DNA of 14,582 nucleotides from Candidatus Rokuibacteriota bacterium (lineage in GTDB: Bacteria; Methylomirabilota; Methylomirabilia; Rokubacteriales; CSP1-6). The position numbers and the translations under genes were made by a program. Positions 1 through 14,582 of this stretch are shown here, one piece after another. Each line of letters opens with the position of its first letter. Within the stretch, counting starts at the first letter, position 1. Below the pieces are notes generated by a model. That model saw only the letters and a program-made list of their open reading frames with translations. It had not been told where the DNA came from and did not search any database. The stretch covers positions 1-14,582 of the forward strand of contig JACPCX010000147.1 of assembly GCA_016184305.1 (NCBI GenBank). The letters run 5' to 3'.

Positions 1-2
1 CG

Positions 3-65
3 GTCACGCATCCGGCCGTGGTCGCCATCTGCGAGGGTGCCCGCGACCGGCTCTTCGCCGAATAG
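3..65 (+). CDS. nhaR: 3' end of a probable NhaR-like LysR-family regulator (partial, enters from the left edge)
   Basis: My translation from position 3: VTHPAVVAICEGARDRLFAE*, TAG at 63-65. HPAVxxIC...LF resembles the NhaR C-terminus (E. coli ...HPAVQRIC...LF). Only 20 codons are visible. Confidence 0.55.
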   Translation, partial: VTHPAVVAICEGARDRLFAE

Positions 66-182
66 ACGGCACGCCTCCATGCGGACCACCAGGGCCCCAC
101 GCCCAGCCCGGTCCGGCGGTCGAGGGACTCGCCTCCTGATAGTCGCGCCCGCGCTGGTTGTTGCGACCGCTGCGATCTCAGC

Positions 183-248
183 CACGGCTTTTTCGAACAA
201 TCCATTCCGCCTTTTCTAATATCCCGAACGCTCGTCCGCCCGTAGAGT
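183..248 (+). promoter_or_regulatory. LysR-type operator (three 15-bp quasi-palindromes) and -10 box upstream of icd
   Basis: AT-rich patch with CACG-N7-CGAA (183-197), TTCC-N7-CTAA (205-219) and TTCT-N7-CGAA (214-228), all variants of TTCG-N7-CGAA; the last two contain T-N11-A. TAGAGT at 243-248 is a candidate -10. Confidence 0.5.
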
Positions 249-292
249 CACTCAGTCGCGATCCCATGAGCGCTCGCGCGCTGGAGGACCCA

Positions 293-1753
293 ATGACGCA
301 GAGTCCGGTGTCCGGAAAACGACTGGTGACGCTCATCGCGGGCGACGGCATCGGCCCGGAGGTCGTACGAGCCGCCCAGCGGGTCGTCGAGGCCGCGGGG
401 GCGCCGGTCGCGTGGCAGGGGTGCGCGGCCGGCGCCGAAGTCTTCAGGCGCGGGCTGTCCTCGGGTGTCCCCCACGAGACGATCGAATCGATCCGGCAGA
501 CGCGCGTCGTGCTGAAGGGGCCGCTGGAGACGCCGGTCGGCTTCGGCGAGAAGAGCGCGAACGTCACCCTCCGCAAGCTCTTCGAGACCTACGCGAACGT
601 GCGCCCGGTGCGCGAGTTCCCGGGGGTGCCGACGCCCTACAGCGGTCGAGGCGTCGACCTGGTCGTCGTGCGCGAGAACGTGGAGGATCTCTACGCGGGG
701 ATCGAGCACATGCAAACCCCAGGGGTCGCCCAGTGTCTCAAGCTGATCTCGCGGAAGGGCTGCGAGAAGATCGTGCGCCTGGCGTTTGAGCTGGCGGTCG
801 CCGAAGGCCGCGGCCGGGTCCACTGCGCGACCAAGGCGAACATCATGAAGCTCACCGAGGGCCTGCTGAAGCGGACCTTCGAGGACGTCGCTCCGGAGTA
901 CCCCGGGATCGCGGCGGAGCACATCATCGTCGACAACTGCGCCCATCAGCTCGTCAAGCGGCCCGAGCAGTTCGAGGTCATCGTGACGTCCAACATGAAC
1001 GGCGATATCCTCAGCGACCTCACCTCGGGGCTCATCGGCGGGCTCGGGTTCGCGGCGTCGGCCAACCTCGGGAGCGAGGTGGCCATCTTCGAGGCGGTGC
1101 ACGGGTCGGCGCCGAAGTACGCGGGCAAGGATGTCATCAACCCGACGGCGATGATCCTCAGCGCGGCGATGATGCTACGCCATCTCGGGGAGTCGGACGC
1201 GGCGGAGGCGATGGAGTACGCCGTGGTGGTCACGCTGGAAGATGGCGTCCACACGCGCGATGTCCCCGGTGACCGGGCGCCCGTGTCGACGACGACCTTC
1301 ACGGACGCGGTCATCACCAACCTCGGCCGGCGCCCGGCGGGCTGGCGGGCGCGCGACTCCAAGCCATTGAAGCTCCCGCAGATCTCTTCCGCGCCGGACT
1401 TCGTGAAGGCCTCCTCGCGCCGGGTCGTTGGCGTGGACGTGTTCGTCGAGTCGGCTCGCACCGCGGAGAGCCTGGGGAAGAGCCTCGAGCGGCTCACGGC
1501 GCACGCGCCGCTGCAGCTCGCGATGGTGTCGAATCGCGGCACGAAGGTGTACCGGGCGAGCGGGGCGATGACCGACCCGATCGACCACTGGCGCTGCCGC
1601 TTCGTGGTTCGAAGCCCGGGCGCGAACCTCGAGGACCGCGTGCTCCTCGCGCTGGTGGATCGGATCGGCGAGCGCCACCGATGGATGCACATCGAGAAGC
1701 TCAACGAGTTCGACGGGGAGCGCGGGTTCACACGGGCGCAGGGCGAGGACTGA
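293..1753 (+). CDS. icd: NADP-dependent isocitrate dehydrogenase with extra C-terminal domain (Thermus/alphaproteobacterial type), 486 aa
   Basis: Motifs GDGIGPEV, LKGPLETP, VRENVEDLY, KANIMK, NMNGDILSD, EAVHGSAPKYAG, NPTA, plus a C-terminal domain ending ...IEKLNEFDGERGFTRAQGED. ATG 293 follows GGAGGA and is preferred over the TTG at 158. Confidence 0.95.
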   Translation: MTQSPVSGKRLVTLIAGDGIGPEVVRAAQRVVEAAGAPVAWQGCAAGAEVFRRGLSSGVPHETIESIRQTRVVLKGPLETPVGFGEKSANVTLRKLFETYANVRPVREFPGVPTPYSGRGVDLVVVRENVEDLYAGIEHMQTPGVAQCLKLISRKGCEKIVRLAFELAVAEGRGRVHCATKANIMKLTEGLLKRTFEDVAPEYPGIAAEHIIVDNCAHQLVKRPEQFEVIVTSNMNGDILSDLTSGLIGGLGFAASANLGSEVAIFEAVHGSAPKYAGKDVINPTAMILSAAMMLRHLGESDAAEAMEYAVVVTLEDGVHTRDVPGDRAPVSTTTFTDAVITNLGRRPAGWRARDSKPLKLPQISSAPDFVKASSRRVVGVDVFVESARTAESLGKSLERLTAHAPLQLAMVSNRGTKVYRASGAMTDPIDHWRCRFVVRSPGANLEDRVLLALVDRIGERHRWMHIEKLNEFDGERGFTRAQGED

Positions 1754-1771
1754 GCGTATGGGAGGTGGCAC

Positions 1772-1954
1772 ATGACAACCTGGTCTCCGCGCGAGGGGCT
1801 CCCGGATTTCCTGGAACAGCTGGAACCGGCACGGCGGGTGCTGCAGCGGCTGGAAAGCTACGAGCGCGTGTTCTCCGACGGGACGACGACGATCGTGCTG
1901 AAGCCGGACTCGGACCTTCTGCGCTACCTCGACTCGCCCCGTGATCGGCGGTGA
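1772..1954 (+). pseudogene. hflC: 60-aa ORF: HflC C-terminal tail, possibly fused to an HflK N-terminus (collapsed hflKC)
   Basis: GGAGG RBS before ATG 1772. RLESYERVFSDGTTTIVLKPDSDLLRYLDSP matches the HflC C-terminal pattern (E. coli RSLRAYENSF...MVMSPDSDFFRYMKTP). MTTWSPREGLPDF weakly recalls HflK M-x-W...GPPDL. No TM anchor or SPFH domain. Confidence 0.7.
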
Positions 1955-2057
1955 TGCGGCGCCTCGCGATCGGGGCAGCGGGAGCGAGGGCAGCCCGAGC
2001 CGGGCAAATGTCGCGACGAGCTGACGCTGACGGTGAGCGTCTTCGAGGAGAAGGGGC

Positions 2058-2609
2058 ATGTGGAAATACTGGGTGGGCGTGGGGCTCGTGATCGCCGTGG
2101 TTGCCGTGATGACCCTCGGCTGCTCCCAGCAGCCGTCGGCGCCGGCGAGCCTGATCGAGGACAAGGCCTATCCGGTGACGCCGCCGTCGGTGACGGTGAC
2201 AGTGGGAATCATGACCGGGGAGATCACCGACCTGAAGGTCACCGAACGGGTCGAGCAGGGCTCGGGCCGCGTCGTCTCTCCCGCGAAGCTGACCGGGACG
2301 CTGAAGCTGAAGAACACCTCCGTGGATCAGTCCGTGCGCCTCATCTCCGGGAGAATCCGGTACATCGACGCCCAGGGGCGGCAATTCGCCATGGCCGATG
2401 GGCAACAGGAGCCGACGATCAAGTTCGGCGGGTACACTGCCGACCGGCTCGATCCCGGGCACGATGCCACGCAGTCGCTCGAGGCGGATGTTCCAGCTGA
2501 GGCGCTGAAGCCGGGGAAGTTGAGGGGGATCCGGCTGGAACTCGCCTACCTCCCGTCCCCGTACAAGGAAGAGAAGCTCAGCTTCCCGGTCTCGATCGGC
2601 AGCCAATAG
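2058..2609 (+). CDS. Uncharacterised lipoprotein, 183 aa
   Basis: GAGGAG RBS; N-terminal Lys, hydrophobic stretch and lipobox-like TLG-C; beta-strand-rich mature region; typical high-GC3 codon usage. Confidence 0.8.
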   Translation: MWKYWVGVGLVIAVVAVMTLGCSQQPSAPASLIEDKAYPVTPPSVTVTVGIMTGEITDLKVTERVEQGSGRVVSPAKLTGTLKLKNTSVDQSVRLISGRIRYIDAQGRQFAMADGQQEPTIKFGGYTADRLDPGHDATQSLEADVPAEALKPGKLRGIRLELAYLPSPYKEEKLSFPVSIGSQ

Positions 2610-2793
2610 GCGCGGGCAGGAGTCAGAGGGTGTCCGAGTGGAGGAGCATGACCGTGCTGACGAGGGCGCGGATCGAGCCGGAGTGGGTAGGGCCGTCGGT
2701 GCGCGCGTAAAGGGCGGGCGCAGTGGCCGGAGGAAGCCCCGCGCGACCCGGCATTGCCTGGAGGGAACCGACGAAGCCTCAGCGGAGGATGGA

Positions 2794-2934
2794 ATGACTC
2801 GACTCGAGGAAGTTCGAGAAACGGGCCGCATGGCGTGGGCGGACCAGCACCGCGGATGGCTGGCGTCTCCGGAGGACATCGTAGACGCCCTCATCAGCGA
2901 GGGCTTCGAGGAATACAAGCGTCGGACCGGCTGA
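2794..2934 (+). pseudogene. Hypothetical protein, 46 aa, probably 3'-truncated
   Basis: GGAGG before ATG 2794; protein-like sequence MTRLEEVRETGRMAWADQHRGWLASPEDIVDALISEGFEEYKR; runs out of frame into the HtpX-like piece at ~2921 and stops four codons later. Confidence 0.45.
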
Positions 2935-2990
2935 TCCTGCGCATGTTCGGTGCCCAAGAGGTGACCGAGCGGAAGGCGCCCGCGCTGCAC
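2922..2990 (+). pseudogene. htpX: 23-codon internal fragment of an HtpX (M48 peptidase) gene
   Basis: SDRLILRMFGAQEVTERKAPALH matches the HtpX-family segment after TM2 (SDKxVLxMYGAxEVxxxEAPELY/H). No start, TM helices or HEXXH motif on either side. Confidence 0.6.
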
Positions 2991-2993
2991 CAC

Positions 2994-3009
2994 TGGCCCC
3001 GGGCTTGCA
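2994..3009 (+). promoter_or_regulatory. Sigma-54 (-24/-12) promoter
   Basis: TGGCCCCGGGCTTGCA: GG at 2995-2996, exactly 10 nt, GC at 3007-3008; fits consensus TGGCACG-N4-TTGC(A/T). Confidence 0.6.
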
Positions 3010-3138
3010 CTCTATGACGCAAACCAGCCGCCATGGCGCGTGGCCGGGGGTGGTTCGCGCGGGGCGCCCGGGCCCCGCGAGCAGGAGGGAGTCGGAAAGC
3101 GACACCAGCGCTCGACGAATGGATCGGACAGGACGTGC

Positions 3139-5037
3139 GAGGCGATCGCTATCGGCCCCGAGGACGTCGCGGTGAGCTGGCTGCCCCTCTACCACGACAT
3201 GGGGCTGATCGGGACCTGGCTCGCTTGCCTCTACTTCGGGATCCCCGTCGTGATCCTCTCGCCGCTCGCCTTCCTCTCCCGCCCCGCGCGCTGGCTCCGG
3301 GCGATCCACGCGCACCGGGCGACGCTCTCGCCCGCGCCGAACTTCGCCTTCGACCTCTGCGTGCGCAAGGTGACGGACGCGGAGATCGAGGGCCTCGACC
3401 TGGGCTCCTGGCGGCTCGCCTGCAACGGCTCGGAGCCCGTGAGCCCCGAGACCATCGAGTGCTTCACTCGCCGCTTCGCGCCCTACGGGTTCAAGCTGGA
3501 GGCGATGTGCCCGGTCTACGGCCTGGCCGAGTCCTCGGTGGCCCTGACCGTGCCGCCCCTCGGGCGTGGTCCCTGGGTCGACCACGTCGCCCGCGCGGGC
3601 TTCGAGCGGCTACGCGAGGCGCGGCCGGCGGCTGCCGACGACGACACCCCCCTGCGCTTCGTCTCGTGCGGCCGCCCCCTGCCGGGCCACGAGGTCCGCA
3701 TCGTCGACGCCACGGGGCAGCCGGTCGCTGAACGGGTCGAAGGGAGGATCGAGTTCCGTGGCCCCTCGGTGACGAGCGGCTACTTCCGGAACCCCGAGGC
3801 CACGCGAGCGGTGCTCCATGGCGAGTGGATGGACTCCGGCGACCTGGGGTACGAGGCCCAGGGAGAGCTGTTCATCACCGGCCGCCAGAAGGACATCATC
3901 ATCAAGGCCGGGAGGAACCTCTACCCCCAGGAGGTCGAGGAGATCGTCGGCGACATCCCTGGCATCCGCAAGGGGTGCGTGGCTGCCTTCGGCGTCGCCG
4001 ACCCCGAGACGGGCACGGAGCGGCTCGTTGTCGTCGCCGAGAGCCGAGAGACCGCGCCGGAGCGCATCGAGACCCTGCGTGCGGGAGTGCTGGAGCGGGT
4101 CGTTACGGTGCTCGGGATTCCACCCGACGTGGTGGTGATCGCCCGGCCCGGCGCGGTGCTCAAGACGTCGAGCGGCAAGATCCGACGGAGCGCGACGCGC
4201 GACGGCTACCTGCGGGGCGAGGTATTCCGCGGGCGCGCGTCGGCCAGTGCGCAGTGGGCGAGGCTCCTGCTCCGAGACGCCGCGGCGCGGGTCGGCCGGC
4301 TCTGCCGCCGGGCCGACGCCCTCGTCTACGCCGCGTACGTCGGCGTGCTGCTGGCGGTGACGGTTCCCCCGCTGTGGGCGCTCCTGCTCGTCATGCCTCG
4401 GCGCCGGGCCGCCGACCGGCTCGTGCGGTTCTGGTGTCGGAGCATCCTCGCCCTGTCCGGCTGTCCGGTACACGTCGAGGGGCTCGATCACCTCCGCGCC
4501 GCCGTTCCAGCGATCCTGGCCGCCAACCATGCCAGCTATCTCGACGCCGTCGTCCTGCTCGCGGCGCTGCCCGTGGAGTTCGCCTTCGTCGCCAAGCGCG
4601 AGCTGGCCGGCTCCCCGGTCGTTGGCACGGTGATCCGCAAGGTCGGCCACCTCACCGTCGAGCGCGTGGAGCCTGCGCAGCGCGCGGCCGACGCCGCCCG
4701 CGCCACCGCGCGCCTTCGTGGCGGCGTCTCACTCTTCTTCTTCCCCGAGGGCACCTTCGTCCGGGCGCCGGGGCTGCTCCCGTTCAGGCTCGGCGCCTTC
4801 AAGGCCGCCGTTGAGGCCGGGCGCCCGGTGGTGCCGATCGGGCTCCGCGGGACCCGCGAGATCCTGGCGGCCGACACGTGGTTGCCGAAGCCGGCGCCCA
4901 TCAGGGTCGCAATCGGCCCCCCGATCACGCCGCAGGCGGGCGGGTGGCAGGAGATGGTGAGGCTGCGTGGTCTCACGCGGGTCGAGATCGCGCGTCTGGC
5001 TGACGAGCACCCCGTGGGAAGCCGGGCCGCGGCATGA
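3139..5037 (+). pseudogene. 5'-truncated fatty acyl-AMP ligase-like adenylation domain fused to a PlsC-type acyltransferase (frame open from 3040)
   Basis: SWLPLYHDMGLIG, APNFAF, NGSEPV, YGLAE, DSGDLG, GRQKD and KTSSGKIRR motifs, then a TM helix, NHASYLD and FFPEGT. The ATP-binding YTSGSTG loop and everything N-terminal to it are absent; 3040-3138 is not homologous and has no convincing RBS/start. Confidence 0.85.
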
Positions 5038-5076
5038 CCACGGCGCTGTCGTCAGACACGGCCGTCGGGGTCACGA

Positions 5077-5469
5077 TTCGTGCTGACGACCGGGCGCGTG
5101 CTTGAGCACTACCACGGTGGTACGATGAGCCGCCGGGTGGCGACCCTGGACTGGCTCGTGCCCGAGGCGGTGGTGGAGCTCCATCCCGCCGGCGCGGCGC
5201 GGGCGGGAGTGGCGGATGCCGGGCGCGTGCGGTTGTGCTCGCGCCGGGGGGCCGTGACGGCCGTGGCGCGGGTGACCGGCGGCATCGCGCCGGGCACCGT
5301 GTTCATGGTCTTCCACTTCGCCGAGGCGGCGGCGAACCTCCTGACCCATGCCGCGCTCGACCCGGTCGCGAAGATCCCCGAGTACAAGGCGTGCGCGGTC
5401 GCCGTCGAGCCGGCAGAGGCCCTGAGCGCCGCCTGCGAGGAGCCACGATGCTGTTCGAGGAGTCGCTGA
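5077..5469 (+). pseudogene. Isolated C-terminal molybdopterin-dinucleotide-binding domain of a formate dehydrogenase alpha subunit
   Basis: FVLTTGRVLEHYHGGTMSRR, ELHP, SRRG, FHFAEAAANLLT, LDPVAKIPEYK. The Fe-S and catalytic domains are absent and there is no RBS before GTG 5080. Confidence 0.85.
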
Positions 5470-5564
5470 AGGACGAGCCGCATACTCGCCGCGTCACGCT
5501 GCTGCACGTCCAGGCCCTCGCCGAGTACCTCCACACGCTCCAGGCCTCGCCCGCTCCGCGGTGA
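5448..5564 (+). CDS. 38-aa ORF, probable chimeric remnant
   Basis: GAGGAG RBS before ATG 5448, overlapping the FDH-domain 3' end. MLFEESLKDEPHTRRVTLLHVQALAEYLHTLQASPAPR has normal codon usage; the second half resembles a cytochrome c C-terminal helix (ALAxYL). Confidence 0.45.
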   Translation: MLFEESLKDEPHTRRVTLLHVQALAEYLHTLQASPAPR

Positions 5565-5592
5565 TGCCACATTACGAGAGCGAGGCCGGCTA

Positions 5593-6984
5593 ATGACACG
5601 CCTCGACGTGTGGCGGCGCCCGCCCGTCGTGGTGCTCCTCGCGGGTCTCGGGCTGCTCGGCTTGCTGACCGTGGCGGCCGCCACCGAGGCGCCACGGCCC
5701 GCCACGCGGCCGGTGGTCTTCGTGGCGCGCATCGAGGGCGTCATCGACCTGGGGCTCGCGCCTTTCGTCGAGCGCGTCCTAATGGAGGCGACGACGGCGG
5801 GCGCCGCCGCCGTGATCCTCGAGATCAACACCTTCGGCGGGCGTGTGGATGCGGCCGTGCTCATCCGGGACGCGCTGCTCCGCGCCCGCGTCCGGACCGT
5901 GGCCTTCGTCAACAAGCGGGCGATCTCCGCCGGCGCCCTCATCAGCCTGGCAGCCGAGACGATCGTGATGGCCGACGGCGGGACGATCGGCGCGGCCACG
6001 CCGGTGGAGAGCGGGTTGCCGGGCGCGCCGGCCCAGCCCGTGGCGGAGAAGACCGTGTCGTACATGCGCAAGGAGTTCCGTGCCACGGCCGAGAGCCGGA
6101 AGCGGCCGCCGCTGCTCGCCGAGGCGATGGTGGACGCTGACGTGGAGATTCCCGGCGTCATCGACAAGGGGAAGCTCCTGACGCTCACCACGGAGGAAGC
6201 CCTGAAGCACGGGCTCGCGGATTTCCGCGCCGACAGCCTCCCCGCCGTCCTGACATCCCTCGCCCTTGCCGGCGCGGAGGTGCGCGAGGCGACGCAGACG
6301 TGGGCCGAGACGCTCGTGCGCTTCCTGACCCACCCGGTGGTCAGCTCGCTCCTGATGGCGGTCGGCATCCTCGGGATCATCGTGGAGATCCGCACGCCCG
6401 GCTTCGGCGTGCCCGGCGCGCTCGGCATCCTGAGCCTCGGACTCTTCTTCTGGGGCCACTGGCTGGTGCGGCTGGCGGGCTGGGAGGAGCTGCTCCTCGT
6501 CGGCGCCGGCCTCATCCTCCTGGCGATCGAGCTCTTCGTCACGCCAGGCTTCGGGGTCACCGGGGTCCTCGGGCTCGCCGCCCTCCTCGGAGGCCTGGGG
6601 TTGAGCCTCGTCGGCGCCGGGGCGACGTGGGAGGTCGTGATCACCGCCGTGACGCGGGTCGCGGTGTCGCTGCTGCTGGCGATCGCGGTCTCCCTGGCCC
6701 TGCTGCGTTTCCTCCCGCGCTTGCCGTTCGGCCGCCGGCTGGTCCTCGAGACCGAGCTGACGGCGCGCGAGGGATTCGCCTCGGCGCCCGAGACCGACCG
6801 CGCCTGGCTCGGCAAGCGCGGCACGGCCGCGTCCACCTTGCGCCCGGCCGGCATCGCCGACTTCGAAGGGGAGCGGGTGGACGTCGTCTCCGACGGGGAC
6901 TTCATCGAGGCCGGGGAACGGATCACGGTAGTCCGTGTGGATGGCAACCGGATCGTCGTGCGGGCACTTCAGAGAAAGGACTGA
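5593..6984 (+). CDS. nfeD: Long-form NfeD (YqeZ-like) membrane-bound ClpP-class serine protease, 463 aa
   Basis: Signal peptide; INTFGG, AISAGALI (Ser), KLLTLT (Lys); multi-TM region with IRTPGFG/FVTPGFG; C-terminal OB fold LRPAG...DVVSDGDFI...VRVDGNRIVVR; directly upstream of floA. Confidence 0.95.
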   Translation: MTRLDVWRRPPVVVLLAGLGLLGLLTVAAATEAPRPATRPVVFVARIEGVIDLGLAPFVERVLMEATTAGAAAVILEINTFGGRVDAAVLIRDALLRARVRTVAFVNKRAISAGALISLAAETIVMADGGTIGAATPVESGLPGAPAQPVAEKTVSYMRKEFRATAESRKRPPLLAEAMVDADVEIPGVIDKGKLLTLTTEEALKHGLADFRADSLPAVLTSLALAGAEVREATQTWAETLVRFLTHPVVSSLLMAVGILGIIVEIRTPGFGVPGALGILSLGLFFWGHWLVRLAGWEELLLVGAGLILLAIELFVTPGFGVTGVLGLAALLGGLGLSLVGAGATWEVVITAVTRVAVSLLLAIAVSLALLRFLPRLPFGRRLVLETELTAREGFASAPETDRAWLGKRGTAASTLRPAGIADFEGERVDVVSDGDFIEAGERITVVRVDGNRIVVRALQRKD

Positions 6985-6987
6985 GCC

Positions 6988-7968
6988 ATGGTTGGAATCG
7001 AAACCGGCGCGTTCGGAGCCGTCGTGCTCCTCGTCCTGGTGGTTGCGGCGCTCGGCGTGCTCCTCTATCTGATCCCCGTCCGGCTCTGGATCGCCGCCTT
7101 CGCCTCAGGCGCGTATGTGGGCCTCTTCACGCTCGTGGGGATGCGCTTGCGGCGGGTGCCCCCGGGCACGATCGTCACCGCCCGCATCAGCGCGGTGAAG
7201 GCCGGGCTGGACATCTCCGTCAACGATCTGGAGGCGCACTTCCTGGCCGGCGGGAACGTCGTCAACGTCGTCAACGCCATGATCTCGGCGGACAAGGCGA
7301 ACATCGTGATGCCCTTCAAGCGGGCCGCGGCCATCGACCTGGCCGGGCGTGACGTGCTGGCGGCGGTGAAGATGTCGGTGATCCCCAAGGTGATCGAGAC
7401 CCCGCGCATCGCAGCCGTGGCCAAGGACGGCATCCAGCTCATCGCGGTCTCGCGGGTGACCGTGCGCACCAACATCGACCGGCTGGTGGGGGGCGCCGGT
7501 GAGGAGACCATCATCGCGCGCGTCGGGGAGGGCATGGTCAGCACGATCGGCTCGGCGGCCAGCCACAAGGACGTTCTGGAAAACCCGGATCACATTTCCA
7601 AGCACGTCCTCTCCAAGGGGCTGGACGCCGGGACGGCCTACGAGATCCTGTCCATCGACATCGCCGATGTGGACGTCGGGGAGAACATCGGCGCCAAGCT
7701 CCAGATCGACCAGGCCAACGCCGACAAGCAGATTGCCCAGGCCAAAGCGGAGGAGCGGCGGGCCATGGCCGTCGCCCTGGAACAGGAGATGCGCGCGCGG
7801 GTGGTCGAGGCCGAGGCCGAGGTGCCGCGGGCCATGGCCGAGGCCTTCCGTCAGGGCAACCTCGGGATCATGGACTACTACCGGATGAAGAACGTCCAGG
7901 CCGACACGGAGATGCGCGAGTCGATCGCGGGCGCCCCCGAGGAGCCGCCCGCACCCCCGAAGAAATAG
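6988..7968 (+). CDS. floA: Flotillin-like protein FloA (YqfA), 326 aa
   Basis: [99 protein letters not shown]; follows nfeD. Confidence 0.97.
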
Positions 7969-7996
7969 CGCATGGCACCGGGAGAACACACACCGC

Positions 7997-8200
7997 ATGT
8001 TCGACTTTCCGGGTCATGGCCGGGGCATCACCGAGTTCGTCGAGCAAGTCGACGGCGACCTCGTTGTCCTCGGGACCCGGGGCAGGACGAATCTGCGCGA
8101 CATCTTGCTTGGCAGCACTGCGGAGCGTGTTGTCCGGGATGCGCGTTGCTCGATCCTGACGGTCACGCCAGAGGGGGTCGAGCCCCCGCTCGGACGGTAG
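7997..8200 (+). pseudogene. C-terminal half of a universal stress protein domain, 67 aa
   Basis: DLVVLGTRGRTNLRDILLGSTAERVVRDARCSILTV is the USP G-x2-G-x9-G-S/T signature; the N-terminal half of the ~140-aa domain is missing. Confidence 0.8.
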
Positions 8201-8273
8201 TCGGCCGCATGGATCCCTGGCGGCTGAGGGACGTGCAAGCAGGGACGGCCAGAGTAGGGGGCCGACAGTGACC

Positions 8274-8639
8274 ATGGAGCCCATCCTCGTCCTCGCGGTC
8301 TTGCTGTTGGTGCTCTTGCTCAACGTCCTCGTGCGCTCGCTGAGGAAGCGTCTCGAAGGCCCGACGCCCCAGGCGCCCGGTCCGGAAGTGGAGAATGGAC
8401 CCTCTCCCGAGCGAACGCGACCGGCGGCCCCCGTCGCACAGCGGCGTGAAGCCCGCGGCATCCTGCCGGACGCTCCGGCGACGTCGCCGCGATCGGCAGC
8501 GCCCCGCCACCGACCTCGCGTGCGCGTCGGGAGCATGCGGGAGGCACGCCGGGCGATTGCGCTCATCGCCGTGCTGGGGGAATGCCGCGGCCTGGAACCA
8601 CCGAGCCGAGTTCGACGGGGAGGAGAGCGGAATGCCTGA
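8274..8639 (+). CDS. YqfB-like membrane protein (third gene of nfeD-floA operons); alternative start GTG 8268
   Basis: N-terminal TM helix, Pro/Arg-rich linker, C-terminal ARRAIALIAVLGECRGLE resembling the YqfB-type xRxAIIxxEILGxPxxL motif; positioned downstream of floA. Confidence 0.65.
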   Translation: MEPILVLAVLLLVLLLNVLVRSLRKRLEGPTPQAPGPEVENGPSPERTRPAAPVAQRREARGILPDAPATSPRSAAPRHRPRVRVGSMREARRAIALIAVLGECRGLEPPSRVRRGGERNA

Positions 8640-8820
8640 TCCACTCCGGGCGGCCACCGGCACTCTCGAGCCGCCCCCTCGGCTCGACGCGCTTCTCCCG
8701 CCGGAGATGGCGAAGCGCGCCGAGGACATTGGCGTGAAGAAGGCCTCGATGGTTGGCGGCACCCTCCTCGTCGGCGGCGTCTACTGGTTCGTCTACCTCC
8801 GCCCGCGGCGGGAACCGTGA
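8632..8820 (+). pseudogene. focA: Formate/nitrite transporter with a large in-frame internal deletion, 62 aa
   Basis: GGAGAG RBS; ATG overlaps the upstream stop. DALLPPEMAKRAEDIGVKKA matches the FocA N-terminus (E. coli DLLLPAAMAKVAEEAGVYKA) and is joined at ~8751 to VGGTLLVGGVYWFVYLR, the FocA C-terminus (E. coli IGGGLLVGLTYWVIYLR). Confidence 0.88.
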
Positions 8821-8848
8821 CGCCGCGTGGGAACCTGGGCCTTCTGCC

Positions 8849-9383
8849 ATGAAAGCCCTTCTGTTCGAACTTCTGACGGGTCGGGGCCCCCTGATCCCGC
8901 TGCTTACCGTGCTGCTGGCGGGGGGGTGGTCTTCATGATTCCCGCCCGCCTGGCGCGCCATGCCCACGCGATCTCGGAAGCGACCGGGCTCGGGGGGTTA
9001 TGGATCGGCTCCGTGCTGCTTGCCGCAGCCACCTCGCTCCCGGAAATCCTGACCGATGTCACCGCGGCGCTGCTCGAGGCACCAGACATCGGGGTCGGTG
9101 ATCTCTTCGGGTCGACGCAGTGGGAAACATCTTCGGCAGCAACGCGTTCAACATGGCGGTCCTGCTGGTCATGGACATCGTCTACGTGCGGGGGCCGATT
9201 CTCGCCATCGTCTCCCGCGACCATCTCCTGACCGTCCTGGTCGCCGTCGCGTGCCTCGGGCTCGGCGTCATGGCCATAGCGTCGCGGGACGAGCGCCGGC
9301 CTCCGATTCTCCGGGTGGAGAGCCTCCTCATCGTCGCCGCATACCTCGGCGCCGCGTGGATGCTCCATAGCCTGGGGAGTTGA
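8849..9383 (+). pseudogene. Na+/Ca2+ (CaCA family) antiporter with a frameshift and an internal deletion
   Basis: Three pieces: MKALLFELL...LLAGG (8849-8926, ends in G7); VVFM...TGLGGLWIGSVLLAAATSLPE...GVGDLFGS (alpha-1 repeat, to ~9114); AVGNIFGSNAFN...HSLGS* (end of alpha-2 repeat, 9117-9383). The second TSLPE motif and the central helices are missing. Confidence 0.88.
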
Positions 9384-9522
9384 GATGTTCGAGCCCGGCT
9401 GAAGGATGACGAAGTCGCCTGAGAACACGATCGAGCGGGCGACCTCCAAGGATGCGTAGCGGATCGCTCAGCCTCGCCATGCGGTCAGTCTCCCTCGCGC
9501 GCGTGTCGCCCGCCGAGCCGCC

Positions 9523-10341
9523 TCAGTCGCCCGCGCGGGCGCCGCTGACGCGGTGGAGCGCGATGCCTGCCGCCACCGCCACATTCAGCGAGTCGATGCC
9601 CGGCGCCATGGGGATCCTCACCTCGAGGTCGGCCGCCGCCAGCGCGCTCGCGCTGAGTCCCTGGCCCTCGGCGCCCAGCAGCAGCACCACGCGCTCCGGC
9701 GCGGGACGCCTGCCGCCGAGCCCGGCGATGTCGGCGGCGCGCGCCGCCGGCGTGAGGGCGACCACCGTGTAGCCCGCCTCGCGCAGCCGACCGAGCCCCG
9801 CCGGCCAGTCGCCGAGGCGGGCGAAGGGCATCGCCAGCGAGCCGCCCATGGAGACGCGGATCGCCTTCCGGTAGAGCGGGTCGGCGCAGCCCGGGGAGAG
9901 CAGCACCGCGTGGGCGCCGAAGGCCCGCGCGTTCCGGAAGATGCCGCCCACGTTGTCGGGGTCGGCCAGGTTCTCGAGCGCGAGGAGGAGCCGCGGGCCC
10001 GGCGCCTCGATCAGCGCCCCCGCGGCGGGCTCGACGCCGCGCTCGCCGACGGCGAGGCAGCCGCGGTGGAACGTGTATCCGACGATGCCGCGGACGATCG
10101 CCTCCGTGGCCAGCAAGAGACGAGGGCCGCCGGCGCGGGAGTCCAGCAGGTCGCGCAGCCCCTCGAGCGCGGGCCCCGTCACCAGCAGCGAGCGCACACG
10201 AAAGCGGCCTGATTCCAGGAGCCGCCTGACGAGGATCCTGCCCTCGACGACGAAGAGCCCCTGCCGGAGGCAGCGCTCGGCGTCCTTGAGATCCCGGTAG
10301 TCGGCGACGCGGGGATCGGACAGGTCCTCGATGGTGTCCAT
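9523..10341 (-). CDS. TrmH/SpoU-family RNA 2'-O-methyltransferase, 272 aa
   Basis: FVVEG, LENLADPDNVGGIFRNA, DPLYRKAIRVSMG, LLGAEGQGL, IPMAPGIDSLNVAVAAGI SPOUT motifs. Confidence 0.93.
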   Translation of the reverse strand: MDTIEDLSDPRVADYRDLKDAERCLRQGLFVVEGRILVRRLLESGRFRVRSLLVTGPALEGLRDLLDSRAGGPRLLLATEAIVRGIVGYTFHRGCLAVGERGVEPAAGALIEAPGPRLLLALENLADPDNVGGIFRNARAFGAHAVLLSPGCADPLYRKAIRVSMGGSLAMPFARLGDWPAGLGRLREAGYTVVALTPAARAADIAGLGGRRPAPERVVLLLGAEGQGLSASALAAADLEVRIPMAPGIDSLNVAVAAGIALHRVSGARAGD

Positions 10342-10351
10342 GCCTGCGGCG

Positions 10352-10393
10352 AGTATACCGCCCCTCGACAGGGGCTCCGCGGCCCGCTACCAT
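10352..10393. promoter_or_regulatory. Divergent sigma-70-type promoters
   Basis: + strand TCGACA (10365-10370)-N17-TACCAT (10388-10393); - strand TATACT (10357-10352) with no clear -35. Neither downstream ATG (10403, 10341) has a Shine-Dalgarno sequence. Confidence 0.6.
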
Positions 10394-10402
10394 GCCTCCG
10401 TC

Positions 10403-10645
10403 ATGGCCGAGCCTCAGCCCGAGCCCATCGAGCCCGCTGCCACCGAGCCTGCGCGAAGCGAGATCGACGCGCTGTTCGCGCTGGTGCGCCGGCGCTACGG
10501 GGACCGGCTGACCGCCGAGCAGCTCGCCGCCGTGCGCGTGGGCATCGAGGGGATCGTGGAGAGCTCGCGCGCGCTGCGCGCCGTGAGGCTCCGCAACTCC
10601 GAGGAGCCATTCCAGCCGTTCGCTCCGTTCCGGGCCGAGCCGTGA
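10403..10645 (+). CDS. Small GatC/AtzG-like amidase partner protein, 80 aa
   Basis: Helical small protein ending LRAVRLRNSEEPFQPFAP (EP-x3-F-x-P tail); stop overlaps the amidase start (GTGA); ATG 10403 lies just after the predicted promoter. Confidence 0.7.
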   Translation: MAEPQPEPIEPAATEPARSEIDALFALVRRRYGDRLTAEQLAAVRVGIEGIVESSRALRAVRLRNSEEPFQPFAPFRAEP

Positions 10646-12039
10646 AGGAGGAGATCGTGTTCCTGCCGGTGCGGCGCCTCGCGGCGCTCGTGAGGACGCG
10701 CGAGCTCTCTCCGGTGGCGCTGGCGGAGACATTCCTCGAGCGCCTCGAGACCCTCGGCCCCAGGTACAACGCGGTGGTCACGGTCACGCGCGATCGGGCG
10801 CTCACCCAGGCGCGGAGTGCCGAGCGGGAAATCGGCGCGGGCCGCTACCGCGGCCTCCTCCACGGCATTCCCTACGGCGCCAAGGACCTCCTCGCGACGT
10901 CTGACGGCATCCCGACCACGTGGGGCGCCGCGCCCCTCAGAGGACAGACCTTCGACGAGGACGCCACCGTCATCCGCCGGCTCGAGGAGGCGGGCGCCGT
11001 GCTCTGCGCCAAGCTCGCCATGATCGAGCTGGCCGGAGGCATGGGCTACCGGCAGCCGAATGCCTCGTTCACGGGCCCCTGCATCAATCCGTGGAGCACG
11101 GACTCGTGGAGCGGCGGCTCCTCCAGCGGCTCGGGCGTGGCCGTGGCGGCGGGGCTCTTGCCCTTTGCCATCGGCTCCGAGACCTGGGGCTCGATCCTCT
11201 CTCCCGCGGGGAGCTGCGGCGTCGCCGGGCTCAGGCCCACCTACGGACGCGTGAGCCGCCACGGCGCCATGGCGCTGTCCTGGACCCTCGACAAGCTGGG
11301 GCCGCTCGGCCTCACGGCCGACGACTGCGGCCTCGTGCTCGACGCCGTCGCGGGGGCGGACCCGGCCGACCCCACCACGAGCGCCCGCCCGTTCAGCTAT
11401 GACCACGCGGATCCCGAGGCGCGCCGCTTCAGGTTCGGCGTGGTCAGGGGCGTGACGGAGCCGTGCGACGGGGACGTGCGCGAGACCTTCGAGCGCTCGC
11501 TGGAGGTGCTGCGCCGGATCGGCAGCGTGGAGGAGGTGGTGCTTGCCGATCTGCCCTGGGAGGAGATCACGCGGACGATCCTCCAGGCCGAGGCCGCGAG
11601 CGCCTTCGAGGACCTCATCGAGAGTGGGAGGATCGCGGAGCTCACGGCGCCCGAGGACCGCTACTCGGCCTATGCCCGGGATGCCATCCTCGCCAAGGAC
11701 TACATCAAGGCGCTGCGGCTGCGCGGGGTGATGGCGCGGGAGGCCGACCGGACGCTGTCGCGACTGGACGCCCTCGTCGCGCCGGGCCGGGCCGCGGTGG
11801 CCCCGGCGCTCGGTCAGGAGATCCGGGGCGGGATGCGCGGCGGCCGGGACCTCATGGGCGCCATCGGCAACGGCGCGGGGCTGCCGGCTATCATCGTGCC
11901 CAACGGGATCGGCGCCCGCGGGCTGCCGACGAGCCTGCAATTCATGGGGCGCGCCTGGGAGGAGAACACGCTCCTCGCGGCGGCGCGCGCCTACCAGTCG
12001 CTTACCGACTGGCACCGGCGCCACCCGCCTGTCGGTTGA
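10642..12039 (+). CDS. Amidase-signature family enzyme (GatA-like), 465 aa
   Basis: GLLHGIPYGAKDL (Lys), GGSSSGS (cis-Ser), GSETWGSI (nucleophile Ser), GLRPTYGRVSR, SWTLDKLGP; no gatB in the window. Confidence 0.93.
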   Translation: MKEEIVFLPVRRLAALVRTRELSPVALAETFLERLETLGPRYNAVVTVTRDRALTQARSAEREIGAGRYRGLLHGIPYGAKDLLATSDGIPTTWGAAPLRGQTFDEDATVIRRLEEAGAVLCAKLAMIELAGGMGYRQPNASFTGPCINPWSTDSWSGGSSSGSGVAVAAGLLPFAIGSETWGSILSPAGSCGVAGLRPTYGRVSRHGAMALSWTLDKLGPLGLTADDCGLVLDAVAGADPADPTTSARPFSYDHADPEARRFRFGVVRGVTEPCDGDVRETFERSLEVLRRIGSVEEVVLADLPWEEITRTILQAEAASAFEDLIESGRIAELTAPEDRYSAYARDAILAKDYIKALRLRGVMAREADRTLSRLDALVAPGRAAVAPALGQEIRGGMRGGRDLMGAIGNGAGLPAIIVPNGIGARGLPTSLQFMGRAWEENTLLAAARAYQSLTDWHRRHPPVG

Positions 12040-12080
12040 TCAGATTGGTTCCCGGGGAACGGGAACGGGAGGAAACTGCC

Positions 12081-12293
12081 ATGCCAATACTCTTCACGGT
12101 CGGGGAGGAGATCAACCATCACGCCGGCGACCCTCGATGCCCCGAGTGCCTGGAGGCCTATCCCGAGCCCTGCCGCTGCGGCGGGCTGATCCACGCCGCC
12201 GGGGGAGAGGAAGAGGACACCGACGACACCCTCCTGCTCACCACCAGGTGCGACAAATGCGGGCGCTCCGAGGAGGAGCTCGGCGAGGAATGA
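12081..12293 (+). CDS. 70-aa acidic Cys/His-rich putative metal-binding protein
   Basis: GGGAGGA RBS, ATG 12081; HH-x5-CPEC-x7-CRC-x4-H-x18-CDKC; stop overlaps the next start (ATGA 12290-12293). It appears only as the tail of ORF 11463..12293 in the track. Confidence 0.8.
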   Translation: MPILFTVGEEINHHAGDPRCPECLEAYPEPCRCGGLIHAAGGEEEDTDDTLLLTTRCDKCGRSEEELGEE

Positions 12294-13234
12294 CGGTCGA
12301 GGCGTGGCCGGTGTACCTGGCCCTCTCCCTCCCCGAGCTGCGCAGGCGCGCCGCCCGGGCCGTCGAGGCGCTCGCCGCCTGTGCCGTCTGTCCGCGTGAC
12401 TGCAAGGTGGATCGGCTGGCGGAGCGGACGGCCGTGTGCAAGACGGGGCGCCGCGCGCGCGTCGCGAGCCACTTCTCGCACCTGGGCGAGGAGGACTGCC
12501 TGCGCGGCTGGCGGGGGTCGGGGACGATCTTCTTCTCGTGGTGCAACCTGCGCTGCGTGTTCTGCCAGAACTTCGACGTGAGCCAGGAGGGCGCCGGCCG
12601 CGAGGTGAGTCCGGGCGAGCTGGCGGGGATGATGCTCGATCTGCAGGCTCGCGGCTGCCACAACATCAACCTCGTGACGCCGGAGCATGTGGTGCCGCAG
12701 ATCCTGGAGGCGCTGCCGGTGGCGGTCGAGCGAGGGCTCAGGCTGCCGCTCGTGTACAACACGAGCGCCTACGACGGGCTGGACAGTCTCCGGCTGATGG
12801 ACGGGCTCGTGGACATCTACATGCCCGACTTCAAGTGCTGGGACCCGGAGGCCTCGCTCCGCTACCTGCGGGCGCGCGAGTACCCGGAGGTGGCCCGCGC
12901 GGCCATCCGCGAGATGCACCGCCAGGTGGGCGATCTCGTCGTGGACGAGCGGGGCCTCGCGCGGCGGGGGCTCCTGGTGCGGCACCTGGTGATGCCGGGC
13001 GGCCTGGCGGGCACGCCGGAGATCGCGCGCTTCCTCGCCGAGGAGATCTCGCCTCACACCTACGTCAATGTCATGGATCAGTACCGCCCGGCGGGCCGCG
13101 TCTTTGGCGACGACTTCGAGGAGATCGCCCGCCCCATCAGCCACGGCGAGTACACGGATGCCGTCCGGGCCGTGCTGGGAGCGGGGCTCCATCGGCTGGA
13201 CCACCGGCGGGGACTGGCCTCGGCCGAGGCCTGA
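12290..13234 (+). CDS. pflX: PflX-type radical SAM protein (putative PFL-activase family), 314 aa
   Basis: CAVCPRDC, HLGEEDCL, GSGTIFFSWCNLRCVFCQN (CxxxCxxC), HNINLVTP, DIYMPDFK, RGLLVRHLVMPG, NVMDQYRP. Confidence 0.9.
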   Translation: MTVEAWPVYLALSLPELRRRAARAVEALAACAVCPRDCKVDRLAERTAVCKTGRRARVASHFSHLGEEDCLRGWRGSGTIFFSWCNLRCVFCQNFDVSQEGAGREVSPGELAGMMLDLQARGCHNINLVTPEHVVPQILEALPVAVERGLRLPLVYNTSAYDGLDSLRLMDGLVDIYMPDFKCWDPEASLRYLRAREYPEVARAAIREMHRQVGDLVVDERGLARRGLLVRHLVMPGGLAGTPEIARFLAEEISPHTYVNVMDQYRPAGRVFGDDFEEIARPISHGEYTDAVRAVLGAGLHRLDHRRGLASAEA

Positions 13235-13298
13235 CCGCCCGCCGCAGCGTTCCGGGCCGCGGGCATGGGCTCGCGCGCCACGGGGAAGGAGGACTGGC

Positions 13299-13979
13299 TT
13301 GCACTCCCATCACGAGCCGGCGCAGCACGGCCACGGCGGCGACGGTCATGGCCACCAGGGTCACCGTGACCACGGACACGGCGGCAGTCACGGCAATCCC
13401 GAGGACCTCGACGCCTACATCGCCAGGCTCGAGGACCCGGCGCGCGACGAGTGGCAGCGGCCCGACGCGGTGGTCGCTGCGCTCGGGCTCAGGCGCGGGC
13501 AGACGGTGGGAGAGATCGGGGGCGGGCCGGGGTACTGGTCCCTGCGGCTCGCCCGGAAGGTCGGCCCGGCCGGCCGCGTCTACGCCGTGGACGTCGAGCC
13601 GCGCCTCCTCGAGGTGCTGCGCCAGCGGCTCGAGGAGCGGAAGGTCGGCAACGTGACGCCCGTGCTCGGGCTGCCCGAGGACCCGCTGCTCCCAGTGGCC
13701 AGCTGCGACCTCGTGCTCCTGGTCAACGCCTATCACCATCTCCCCGACGGGCCCGCCTATCTCCGGCGCCTGGCCCGGGCCCTCCGGCGAGGGGGACGGA
13801 TCGTCAACGTGGATTTCCACAAGCGGGAGACACCGGTGGGACCGCCTGTGGAGGAGCGGGTGTCGCGGGAGGAGTTCCTGGCCGGGGCGCGGCGCGCGGG
13901 GCTCGTCCCCGTCGCCGAGCACGGTTTCCTGCCGCATCAGTACTGCGTGGCGCTCAGACCGCGGCGCGCGCCGAGGTGA
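13299..13979 (+). CDS. Class I SAM-dependent methyltransferase with His-rich N-terminus, 226 aa
   Basis: AAGGAGG RBS then TTG 13299; LEDPARDEWQRPD, VGEIGGGPGY (motif I), VYAVDVE, NAYHHL, LRRGGRIVNVDF, FLPHQY. Confidence 0.88.
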   Translation: MHSHHEPAQHGHGGDGHGHQGHRDHGHGGSHGNPEDLDAYIARLEDPARDEWQRPDAVVAALGLRRGQTVGEIGGGPGYWSLRLARKVGPAGRVYAVDVEPRLLEVLRQRLEERKVGNVTPVLGLPEDPLLPVASCDLVLLVNAYHHLPDGPAYLRRLARALRRGGRIVNVDFHKRETPVGPPVEERVSREEFLAGARRAGLVPVAEHGFLPHQYCVALRPRRAPR

Positions 13980-14015
13980 GGCTGGGGCAGGCGCCAGCAC
14001 CGGCCCGACGAGCGC

Positions 14016-14462
14016 TTACCCGAGGGCGGCGAGGTCGAAGGCGGCGGTGAAGGGGTTGCGGAATCTCACGCCGTCGATCAAGCGGCCGTCCGCGAAGTCT
14101 TCGCTCAGGACGATCTCGATCTGGTTGAGGCGCGCCGTGGCCCAGAGCTGCGCGTCCCAGTAGCTCAGGCGGTGCGCCTGGACGCCGCGCCCGGCCTCGA
14201 GGACGATGAAGGCGGTGATCGGCACGACCGGCCACGAGGCCGACAGGTTCCCCGCCTGCTCGACCGCCTCGCCCGGCGTGAGGGGGGGATCCAGCTTCTG
14301 GGTCGCCACCCGCAGGAACTCCCCGAGCACCTGGGCGGACAGCCTGCCGCGGCCGTCGGCGACGAGACGGCGCAGGACCTCCAGGGCGCGCTGCTGCTTG
14401 TCGCGGTCGCGGACGTCGTAGGCGTATACGACGACGTTGGTATCGATCAGGACGTCAGACAT
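14016..14462 (-). CDS. vapC: PIN-domain (VapC) toxin, 148 aa
   Basis: LIDTNVVVYAYD, SAQVLGEF, SYWDA, LSEDF, NPF; acidic catalytic residues present. Confidence 0.92.
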   Translation of the reverse strand: MSDVLIDTNVVVYAYDVRDRDKQQRALEVLRRLVADGRGRLSAQVLGEFLRVATQKLDPPLTPGEAVEQAGNLSASWPVVPITAFIVLEAGRGVQAHRLSYWDAQLWATARLNQIEIVLSEDFADGRLIDGVRFRNPFTAAFDLAALG

Positions 14463-14580
14463 CGTACAGCGCGTCGCGCGTCCACGCCCGCTGGCGCTGC
14501 GCGACCCGCTGGTTGCGGTGGCGGGCGATGAAGGCCTCCACCCTCTTCCAGGCGTCCGGATCTGGAGCCCGCGAAGCCGT
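14455..14580 (-). CDS. 3' end of the cognate VapB-type antitoxin (partial, enters from the right edge)
   Basis: My translation: TASRAPDPDAWKRVEAFIARHRNQRVAQRQRAWTRDALYDV*. WTRxxLYD tail is typical of antitoxins upstream of this PIN subfamily; 8-nt overlap (ATGTCTGA) with vapC. Confidence 0.8.
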   Translation of the reverse strand, partial: TASRAPDPDAWKRVEAFIARHRNQRVAQRQRAWTRDALYDV

Positions 14581-14582
14581 GC

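Follow-up and report, generated by a model that had tools for sequence, protein, structure and literature searches.

Repeated clean deletion in a membrane-stress and ion-homeostasis gene cluster of a Candidatus Rokuibacteriota genome

Pseudogenes of Salmonella have been described as being purged by deletion faster than expected under neutrality (Kuo and Ochman 2010, PMC2916853), and a second report gives microhomology of 1-12 nt at 171 of 396 pseudogene deletions, Ku and LigD being mostly absent (PMC6054270). Operons of NfeD with YqfA are known, yqeZ-yqfA being described as nfeD1b-floA, SPFH5 (PMC2636767), and the transmissible stress-tolerance locus (tLST, locus of heat resistance) is defined in its description by dna-hsp20-clpG (PMC8290217). 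Here we analyze a stretch of 14,582 nt from a Candidatus Rokuibacteriota genome (contig JACPCX010000147.1 of assembly GCA_016184305.1, the window), in which remnants of stress, lipid, formate and ion-transport genes surround an intact nfeD-floA pair between positions 1772 and 9383. An earlier note, made from the letters alone, had read this region as decaying by repeated clean deletion out of a larger cluster, a reading borne out by 5.1 kb of missing DNA measured at five junctions.

Ten junctions were located within 7.6 kb: 1841-1853, 2646, 2921, 2993, 3137-3145, about 5080, 5450, about 7990-8020, 8750-8755 and 9117. The DNA lost at the five measured ones amounts to 5,076 bp, and the total would be roughly 9-10 kb once the losses from formate dehydrogenase (FDH), htpX, manC, cytochrome c and the universal stress protein (USP) gene, estimated from homologue lengths, are added. 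We consider it likely that the window holds a patchy Rokubacterial membrane-stress and ion-homeostasis cluster from which ten deletions removed most of ten genes, probably no longer needed, with nfeD-floA kept by purifying selection.

In what follows, G denotes genomes, L contigs, C contigs within a genome, X sequencing runs and P proteins. The window is the entire contig C95 of G000, a metagenome-assembled genome (MAG) of 3.2 Mb (239 contigs, N50 25 kb, 89% complete, 70% GC). The nearest HflC homologues (94-100% identity) sit in Ca. Rokubacteria, Rokuibacteriota or Methylomirabilota genomes, and the runs matching the window best are groundwater metagenomes. Profile searches covered 26 open reading frames (ORFs) or fragments of the window. 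The genes and remnants of the window from 3 to 9383 lie on the forward strand.

Each remnant named in the earlier note mapped onto an intact homologue in relatives. The first (1772..1954) is an in-frame fusion of 60 aa that joins residues 1-27 of 352 of HflK to residues 249-285 of 285 of HflC; the junction is a 13-nt overlap with one mismatch (8 exact) at 1841-1853, and 1,738 bp were lost. A manC-like sugar nucleotidyltransferase, overlooked in the note, is represented by its last 20 codons (2647..2710; junction 2646/2647). Next comes a conserved hypothetical protein of 95 aa, of which the N-terminal 43 are left (2794..2921); relative to G056, 1,050 bp were lost at junction 2921, where 1 nt is common to both ends. 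An out-of-frame middle fragment of htpX (2922..2993), aa 54-80 of 297 by comparison with intact homologues, ends at a second junction (2993) with 1 nt shared. The next remnant (3137..5037) is the C-terminal two thirds of an acyl carrier protein/AMP-ligase/PlsC fusion without the first approximately 320 of 950 aa; G001 has the intact protein of 950 aa, and relative to it 1,102 bp were lost at junction 3137-3145, where 9 nt are shared.

In the FDH alpha remnant (5034..5450), 15 codons of the N terminus run out of frame, at about 5078-5082, into those for aa 789-901 of 903, the molybdopterin-dinucleotide-binding domain. What the note had called a 38-aa chimera (5448..5564) proved to be what is left of a 147-aa cytochrome c, its start codon and final 37 aa, the CxxCH motif being lost; its DNA matches the intact copies in L208 and L211. 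A cut had been placed at 5505, where the DNA is continuous with G001 and with L208/L211; the true cut is at 5450/5451. Among 159 genomes, a protein search with this remnant matched G000 and G001 only. The C-terminal half of the USP gene (7997..8200) follows a junction at about 7990-8020 that is common to G001 and L174; the left donors of this junction and of the FDH junction were looked for and not found. The focA remnant (8632..8820; 62 aa) is in frame, codon 40 being joined at 8750-8755 to the last approximately 22 codons with a loss of about 690 bp. The CaCA (Na+/Ca2+ exchanger) remnant (8850..9383) retains aa 8-76 and 242-328 of 328; it carries an out-of-frame deletion of about 496 bp at 9117/9118 and a 1-nt frameshift at about 8919, an extra G in a G run that run X5 also has. 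The note had counted this one frameshift and otherwise almost no point damage.

Four genes that the note had called intact were indeed full length when compared with relatives. These are a predicted lipoprotein of 183 aa with no Pfam family (2058..2609), nfeD1b (yqeZ-like, 463 aa, 5593..6984; N-terminal, membrane and OB-fold domains, PF25145, PF24961, PF01957), floA (yqfA, 326 aa, 6988..7968; PF12127 and NF010186, all above cut-off) and a yqfB-like gene for a membrane-anchored protein of 123 aa (8268..8639). A search of a protein-cluster atlas with the lipoprotein gave unnamed clusters plus DUF4352/DUF5067 leads scoring below 0.9 only. The yqfB-like gene had no Pfam or NCBIfam match and is named by position, yqfB being the third gene of the yqeZ-yqfA(-yqfB) operon. 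Among the 26 window sequences, whole Pfam profiles were matched by icd, nfeD1b and floA, and part profiles only were found for AMP-binding (199-384/384), the FDH molybdopterin-dinucleotide domain, USP (92-140/141) and Na_Ca_ex, the last in two frames. The membrane-stress and ion-homeostasis theme proposed for the locus is supported. As the note had stated, transposases are missing: no transposase family was found among the 26 ORFs and fragments scanned.

Unitigs of run X1 bridged nine of the ten junctions with zero differences, and for each of these nine a unitig of X2 or X4 did so too, with 0-1 differences; the bridges extend at least 31 nt on each side. All three runs come from a single study, and X1 may itself be the source. 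For the hflK/hflC junction no bridging unitig was present among the matches listed; this join recurs in metagenome contig L177 and in a nine-member cluster on 25 contigs. The FDH and cytochrome c joins recur in L174 at 98% identity and the USP join in G001 and L174, so that four window junctions are reproduced by other assemblies. A second member of the FocA fusion was found in protein clusters. These results show that the junctions exist in DNA. Joints of equal depth at 2314-2440 and 5444-5548 had suggested a second decayed copy in G000, a hypothesis that was not supported: no second copy was found, and the first joint matches the G074 allele.

Comparison with sister strains showed that the same genes (FDH, cytochrome c, lipoprotein/manC, focA and CaCA) were deleted independently in strains 2-3% apart. 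Over 1,401 nt at nfeD, the window, G001 and L174 differ by 31-33 nt, and L176 differs from them by 40-46; genome-wide, G001 is about 3% divergent from G000. The window's FDH junction is identical in L174. G001 has a whole 950-aa ligase gene and other FDH junctions, and both its FDH and cytochrome c genes are cut elsewhere, each allele retaining DNA that is missing from the other. Further cytochrome c deletions occur in L176 and G092. The lipoprotein gene is interrupted at 2333 in sister contig L177, where half of it is lost, and at 2314 in G074; the G074-type join is also present in runs X1, X2 and X4. Runs X2 and X8 hold additional focA-CaCA alleles. Other genera carry deletions of their own in cluster genes: G074 has fragments of nhaR, purE, the lipoprotein gene and manC, and G133 has a ligase stub upstream of nfeD. 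The near-lack of point damage is accounted for by the short time involved (about 2-3% strain divergence), and the clean look of the remnants by the large deletions, which erase the DNA that would bear such damage.

Two side observations concern this pattern of loss. The FDH deletions of the window and of G001, though independent, stop about 10 nt or less apart (window 5078-5091), at the start of the last domain. A second telescoped patch was seen in G000:C12 by comparison with L361, with three deletions (1,229, 900 and 423 bp) over a FAD/methyltransferase gene, an ftsH paralogue and a membrane gene; the same contig carries an hflC-like fragment.

The ratio of nonsynonymous to synonymous change (pN/pS) was 0.17-0.25 for nfeD and 0.08-0.09 for floA, the background being 0.25 (106 ORFs). 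The nfeD-floA pair is under purifying selection. In small pools made post hoc, the remnants showed 11 nonsynonymous to 6 synonymous differences versus 14:29 for nfeD and floA (Fisher p 0.04), and 6:3 against 14:39 when compared with L174 (p 0.025, with the same reservation). The remnants look to be under relaxed selection, as far as such small, post hoc counts indicate.

Two window joins share 8 and 9 exact nt (chance 0.00065 each) and the other measurable joins 0-3 nt; the note had suggested looking for breakpoint microhomology. In clean, unique deletions elsewhere in the genome, the mean number of shared nucleotides was 1.04 (n=28) and 0.92 (n=39) versus 0.82 expected by chance. Ku (PF02735) was not found in G000, G001 or G002 (87-94% complete) and is present in G062 and G074; as it was not found in the three genus members searched, non-homologous end joining was rejected as the cause. 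MutS and MutL were present in five of five genomes, and loss of mismatch repair was rejected; NucS was found in none of the five. A GAT/CGAT motif had been noticed at the left end of three joins in the window; in 39 independent deletions it occurred once against 0.98 expected, which is no enrichment, and it was also rejected.

Slippage at short repeats together with homology-independent joining would fit these data best. The cluster may have arrived by horizontal transfer as shuffled modules. The 8-9-nt joins would be due to replication slippage, and the blunt joins to homology-independent illegitimate recombination or to Ku-independent end joining. Relaxed selection, probably aided by selection against costly truncated membrane proteins, could have let these deletions fix.

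Several results weigh against this account of unneeded genes lost by random deletion. The microhomology counted is uncertain by 1-3 nt at the junctions of several donors that are only 75-90% identical. The nonsynonymous and synonymous counts are small and were pooled post hoc, the USP and yqfB pieces having 1 difference each. Outside the locus trmH has a pN/pS of 0.78, and the AMP part of the ligase remnant has 0.26. G000 has paralogues of htpX (60%) and of manC (42-46%), and redundancy accounts for part of the loss only: no close intact hflK, hflC, FDH, focA or CaCA gene was found in this 89%-complete genome. The reads bridging the junctions all come from one study. Finally, a left breakpoint in focA is shared by two solid and two weak alleles, which is unexpected under random deletion.

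This last result could be explained by a fixed break site driving at least part of the erosion: focA would be cut behind codon 40 (8750) by a nuclease, at a gyrase hotspot or by an excising element, and the end would be joined to variable downstream points. The left end of the window allele is compatible with 8750-8752. A unitig of run X8 matches 8619-8750 with 5 differences and then enters the middle of focA, in agreement with assembled proteins P0019/P0177; a loose end of run X2 at 8750 continues into a third part of focA; two X6 unitigs stop at 8750, and P0013 breaks there too. Depths in X2 (58 and 52 in the flanks, 30 in the window middle) and two X8 alleles at a depth of about 4 suggest that alleles coexist in one population. 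However, no more than two of these alleles are solid: for X2 there is one unitig, with a match length that was not seen, and for P0013 one record lacking a contig. Two breakpoints would coincide within 3 nt by chance in an estimated 0.5% of cases per gene, or about 5% over ten genes; the GAT motif at left ends is not enriched in the 39 independent deletions, and no element or convincing hairpin is present at the site. We regard a fixed break site as unlikely.

A broader version is about as doubtful: the stress island, shared horizontally, would be lost from groundwater Rokubacteria faster than point mutations accrue, one population having several deletion alleles at a time and a fixed focA break site being repaired without Ku to variable distal ends, and the same blunt-deletion process would be eroding the whole genome, core genes included. 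An unusual break-repair regime would be indicated were the focA hotspot and the lesions in core genes described below to prove real. As a separate observation, besides P0013 and P0019, 4 of the 120 matches listed (P0003, P0008, P0018 and P0053) are FocA homologues that lack 28-163 aa internally or run into the end of CaCA.

The earlier note had also taken the order of the remnants as that of one ancestral locus. We mapped reference proteins on 58 loci, the window included. About half of the 16 window adjacencies recur elsewhere; the middle links (htpX-ligase, ligase-FDH, floA-USP and USP-yqfB) occur in near-identical sister strains only, or nowhere. A left module, icd-hflK-hflC-lipoprotein-manC-hypothetical-htpX, was recovered in overlapping parts from G002, G062, G075, G074 and G056: icd to manC in the first three (manC is missing from G062 and cut in G002 and G075), manC next to the hypothetical gene in G074, and the hypothetical gene, a zinc ribbon gene and htpX in G056. 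A right module, nfeD-floA-yqfB-cytochrome c-focA-SNF-CaCA, is intact in L211 and lies beside nhaA (L211, G092). The ancestral order proposed in the note holds by half only: synteny in relatives extends over two modules and not over the middle links, and the order varies. In addition, the L199 contig has two nfeD-floA pairs, the first nfeD being interrupted, beside focA.

That the window is the fossil of a single conserved operon running from nhaR to CaCA is improbable. In agreement with such an operon, each module is syntenic in relatives; moreover, G133 has a ligase remnant upstream of nfeD, and L176 a piece of FDH upstream of its cytochrome c remnant. However, none of the relatives among the 58 loci has the whole order, weak evidence in that the contigs of relatives are mostly short, and several genes are placed otherwise: FDH is beside focA in G002 and G142, cytochrome c comes after yqfB in L211, hflKC is beside nfeD in L205, L236 and L259, and the position of USP differs as well. 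These differing orders make the window one arrangement of mobile modules. The floA gene was present in 10 of 41 genomes and was not found in the 98%-complete G003; two genera that share 65% identity in GltX, the one core gene compared, have 96.5% in HflC and 90% in HflK. On these identities and distributions, the cluster likely moves horizontally among Rokubacteria as shared modules.

The persistence of the HflK/HflC fusion, with 9 sequence variants on 25 contigs and an origin older than the split from the G001-type strain, could indicate that the in-frame fusions (60-aa HflK/HflC, 62-aa FocA and 38-aa cytochrome c) are selected mini-proteins or serve translational coupling to downstream genes. 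We find this very hard to believe: three of the six testable gene-to-gene joins are in frame, near the one-third expectation; the fusions have no SPFH domain, channel helices or haem motif; sister alleles vary in frame and content; and the cluster of variants, being length-matched, is unable to reveal broken copies.

To count deletions outside the locus as well, G001 was compared with G000 over 1.31 of its approximately 4.7 Mb; events that involved replacement or contained repeats were excluded from the clean unique counts. The first batch (260 kb aligned) gave 79 indels of at least 30 bp away from Ns, of which 28 outside the locus were clean and unique (16 G000-short, 12 G001-short). From the second (495 kb aligned) came 110 events, of which 39 counted as clean and unique; 35 were G000-short and 22 had no shared nucleotide. 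With its ten joins, the locus has about 1.3 per retained kb; the corresponding density of unique G000-short events in the first batch is about 0.08 per kb. Some of the locus joins predate the split. Thirty of 42 clean G000-short events fall in long G001 ORFs, and of the 24 that are internal, 16 keep the frame (p 0.0009).

Blunt deletions relative to G001 also affect the core genes gltX (98 nt, C85 about 25124), dnaJ (68 nt, C61 about 3500) and nuoA (75 nt, C126 about 12073). The first frameshifts the only gltX copy found in G000, directly past the first catalytic motif, and the genome-wide set may therefore include assembly errors. The core-gene deletions could be due to such errors, to minority alleles or to an unusual genome, and genome-wide erosion is unproven. 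Exact look-up of G000 proteins that bear deletions (those of nuoA, degP and pdhA, a 2Fe-2S protein and a pyridoxal phosphate enzyme) gave one contig each; it was uninformative, as the intact floA and lipoprotein genes gave the same result. Two deletions of equal size (67 nt) were seen in G062, in icd (L070 447-448) and floA (L117 16522-16525); they possibly represent an assembly signature or errors and were not counted as support. A non-coding repeat of about 200 bp, which has inverted ends and CTAG at its borders, is abundant (85 BLAST hits in G000; example L155, G001:C109 about 32060-32290), variably present between G000 and G001 and absent from the window; it looks like a miniature inverted-repeat transposable element.

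That the window junctions are misjoins from gap closing or a chimeric contig is the least credible explanation, largely refuted for the window and open for the genome-wide set: the MAG is fragmented, scaffolding errors are acknowledged for assemblies of this type in the report cited (PMC5880246), and the excess of G000-short indels, gltX, dnaJ and nuoA included, is hard to reconcile with a viable clone, but the bridging unitigs have flank-like depth in two samples, four joins are repeated by other assemblies, and the in-frame excess within genes argues that many of the genome-wide deletions are real as well.

At its left end the window carries the 3' end of a nhaR-type LysR regulator gene (3..62; 95% identity to aa 281-300 of G056 NhaR) and an intact NADP isocitrate dehydrogenase gene, icd (486 aa, 293..1753; NF006673 above cut-off), found at the same position in G002, G062 and G075. 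The contig starts inside nhaR, and the left edge of the cluster is therefore missing. An AT-rich tract at 180-281, 5' of icd, is kept in G074 although icd is gone there, and may be the site of the NhaR-type regulator or a promoter. The right flank (9523-14582) codes for a SpoU/TrmH methylase, an amidase, a radical SAM protein, a methyltransferase and a PIN-domain protein; it is collinear with G001 and G003 and thus lies outside the island. Positions 1-9800 contain no multi-copy repeats besides paralogue hits. The window gave no Rfam match, and promoter and terminator scans of it gave chance level only; no integrase, att sites or flanking mobile elements were found in it, the left edge lying beyond the contig start.

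Natural time series of gene loss are rare; the locus provides one from a free-living, uncultured phylum, in which, the intact donors being known, the rate, size and join type of deletions are measurable against synonymous change. It is also a warning for annotators: MAG fragments labelled 'formate dehydrogenase', 'focA' or 'hflC' are here dead remnants. A literature search, with subscription papers mostly outside it, found no description of a cluster of NhaR, HflKC, HtpX, NfeD-FloA, FocA, CaCA and NhaA or of its decay, and nothing on pseudogene deletion in Rokubacteria.

Adjacent deletions promoted by insertion sequences (IS) have one fixed and one variable endpoint. The focA breakpoint at 8750 resembles them in this respect and differs in that no IS end is present at any junction and no transposase in the window. 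The tLST, as described in the text cited above, is likewise a modular stress island that is shared horizontally and has HtpX, cation/proton antiporters and truncated variants. Of such features the window has the htpX remnant; KefC-type genes lie near CaCA in the G107 and G015 loci and not in the window, and none of the core families dna-shsp20-clpG was found among the 26 window sequences or the selected ORFs of relatives scanned. With the yqeZ-yqfA operon, as characterized in the report cited for it, the locus shares adjacent, co-oriented, intact NfeD1b and FloA genes, followed directly in relatives by a small membrane gene; it differs in the USP remnant between floA and the yqfB-like gene and in the clustering of the pair with hflKC, htpX and transporters.

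The closest parallel is deletional pseudogene decay as presented in PMC2916853 and PMC6054270: unneeded genes are deleted, in many cases with short or no microhomology and without Ku/LigD, and an excess of in-frame (3n) deletions is reported as well. In those papers the pseudogenes mostly have a single small lesion each, and both studies left out multi-gene deletions by design, whereas here ten genes close to one another carry deletions of 0.3-2 kb, repeated independently in co-existing free-living strains. We regard the locus as a vivid, well-documented instance of known deletional decay, with one oddity, the focA breakpoint.

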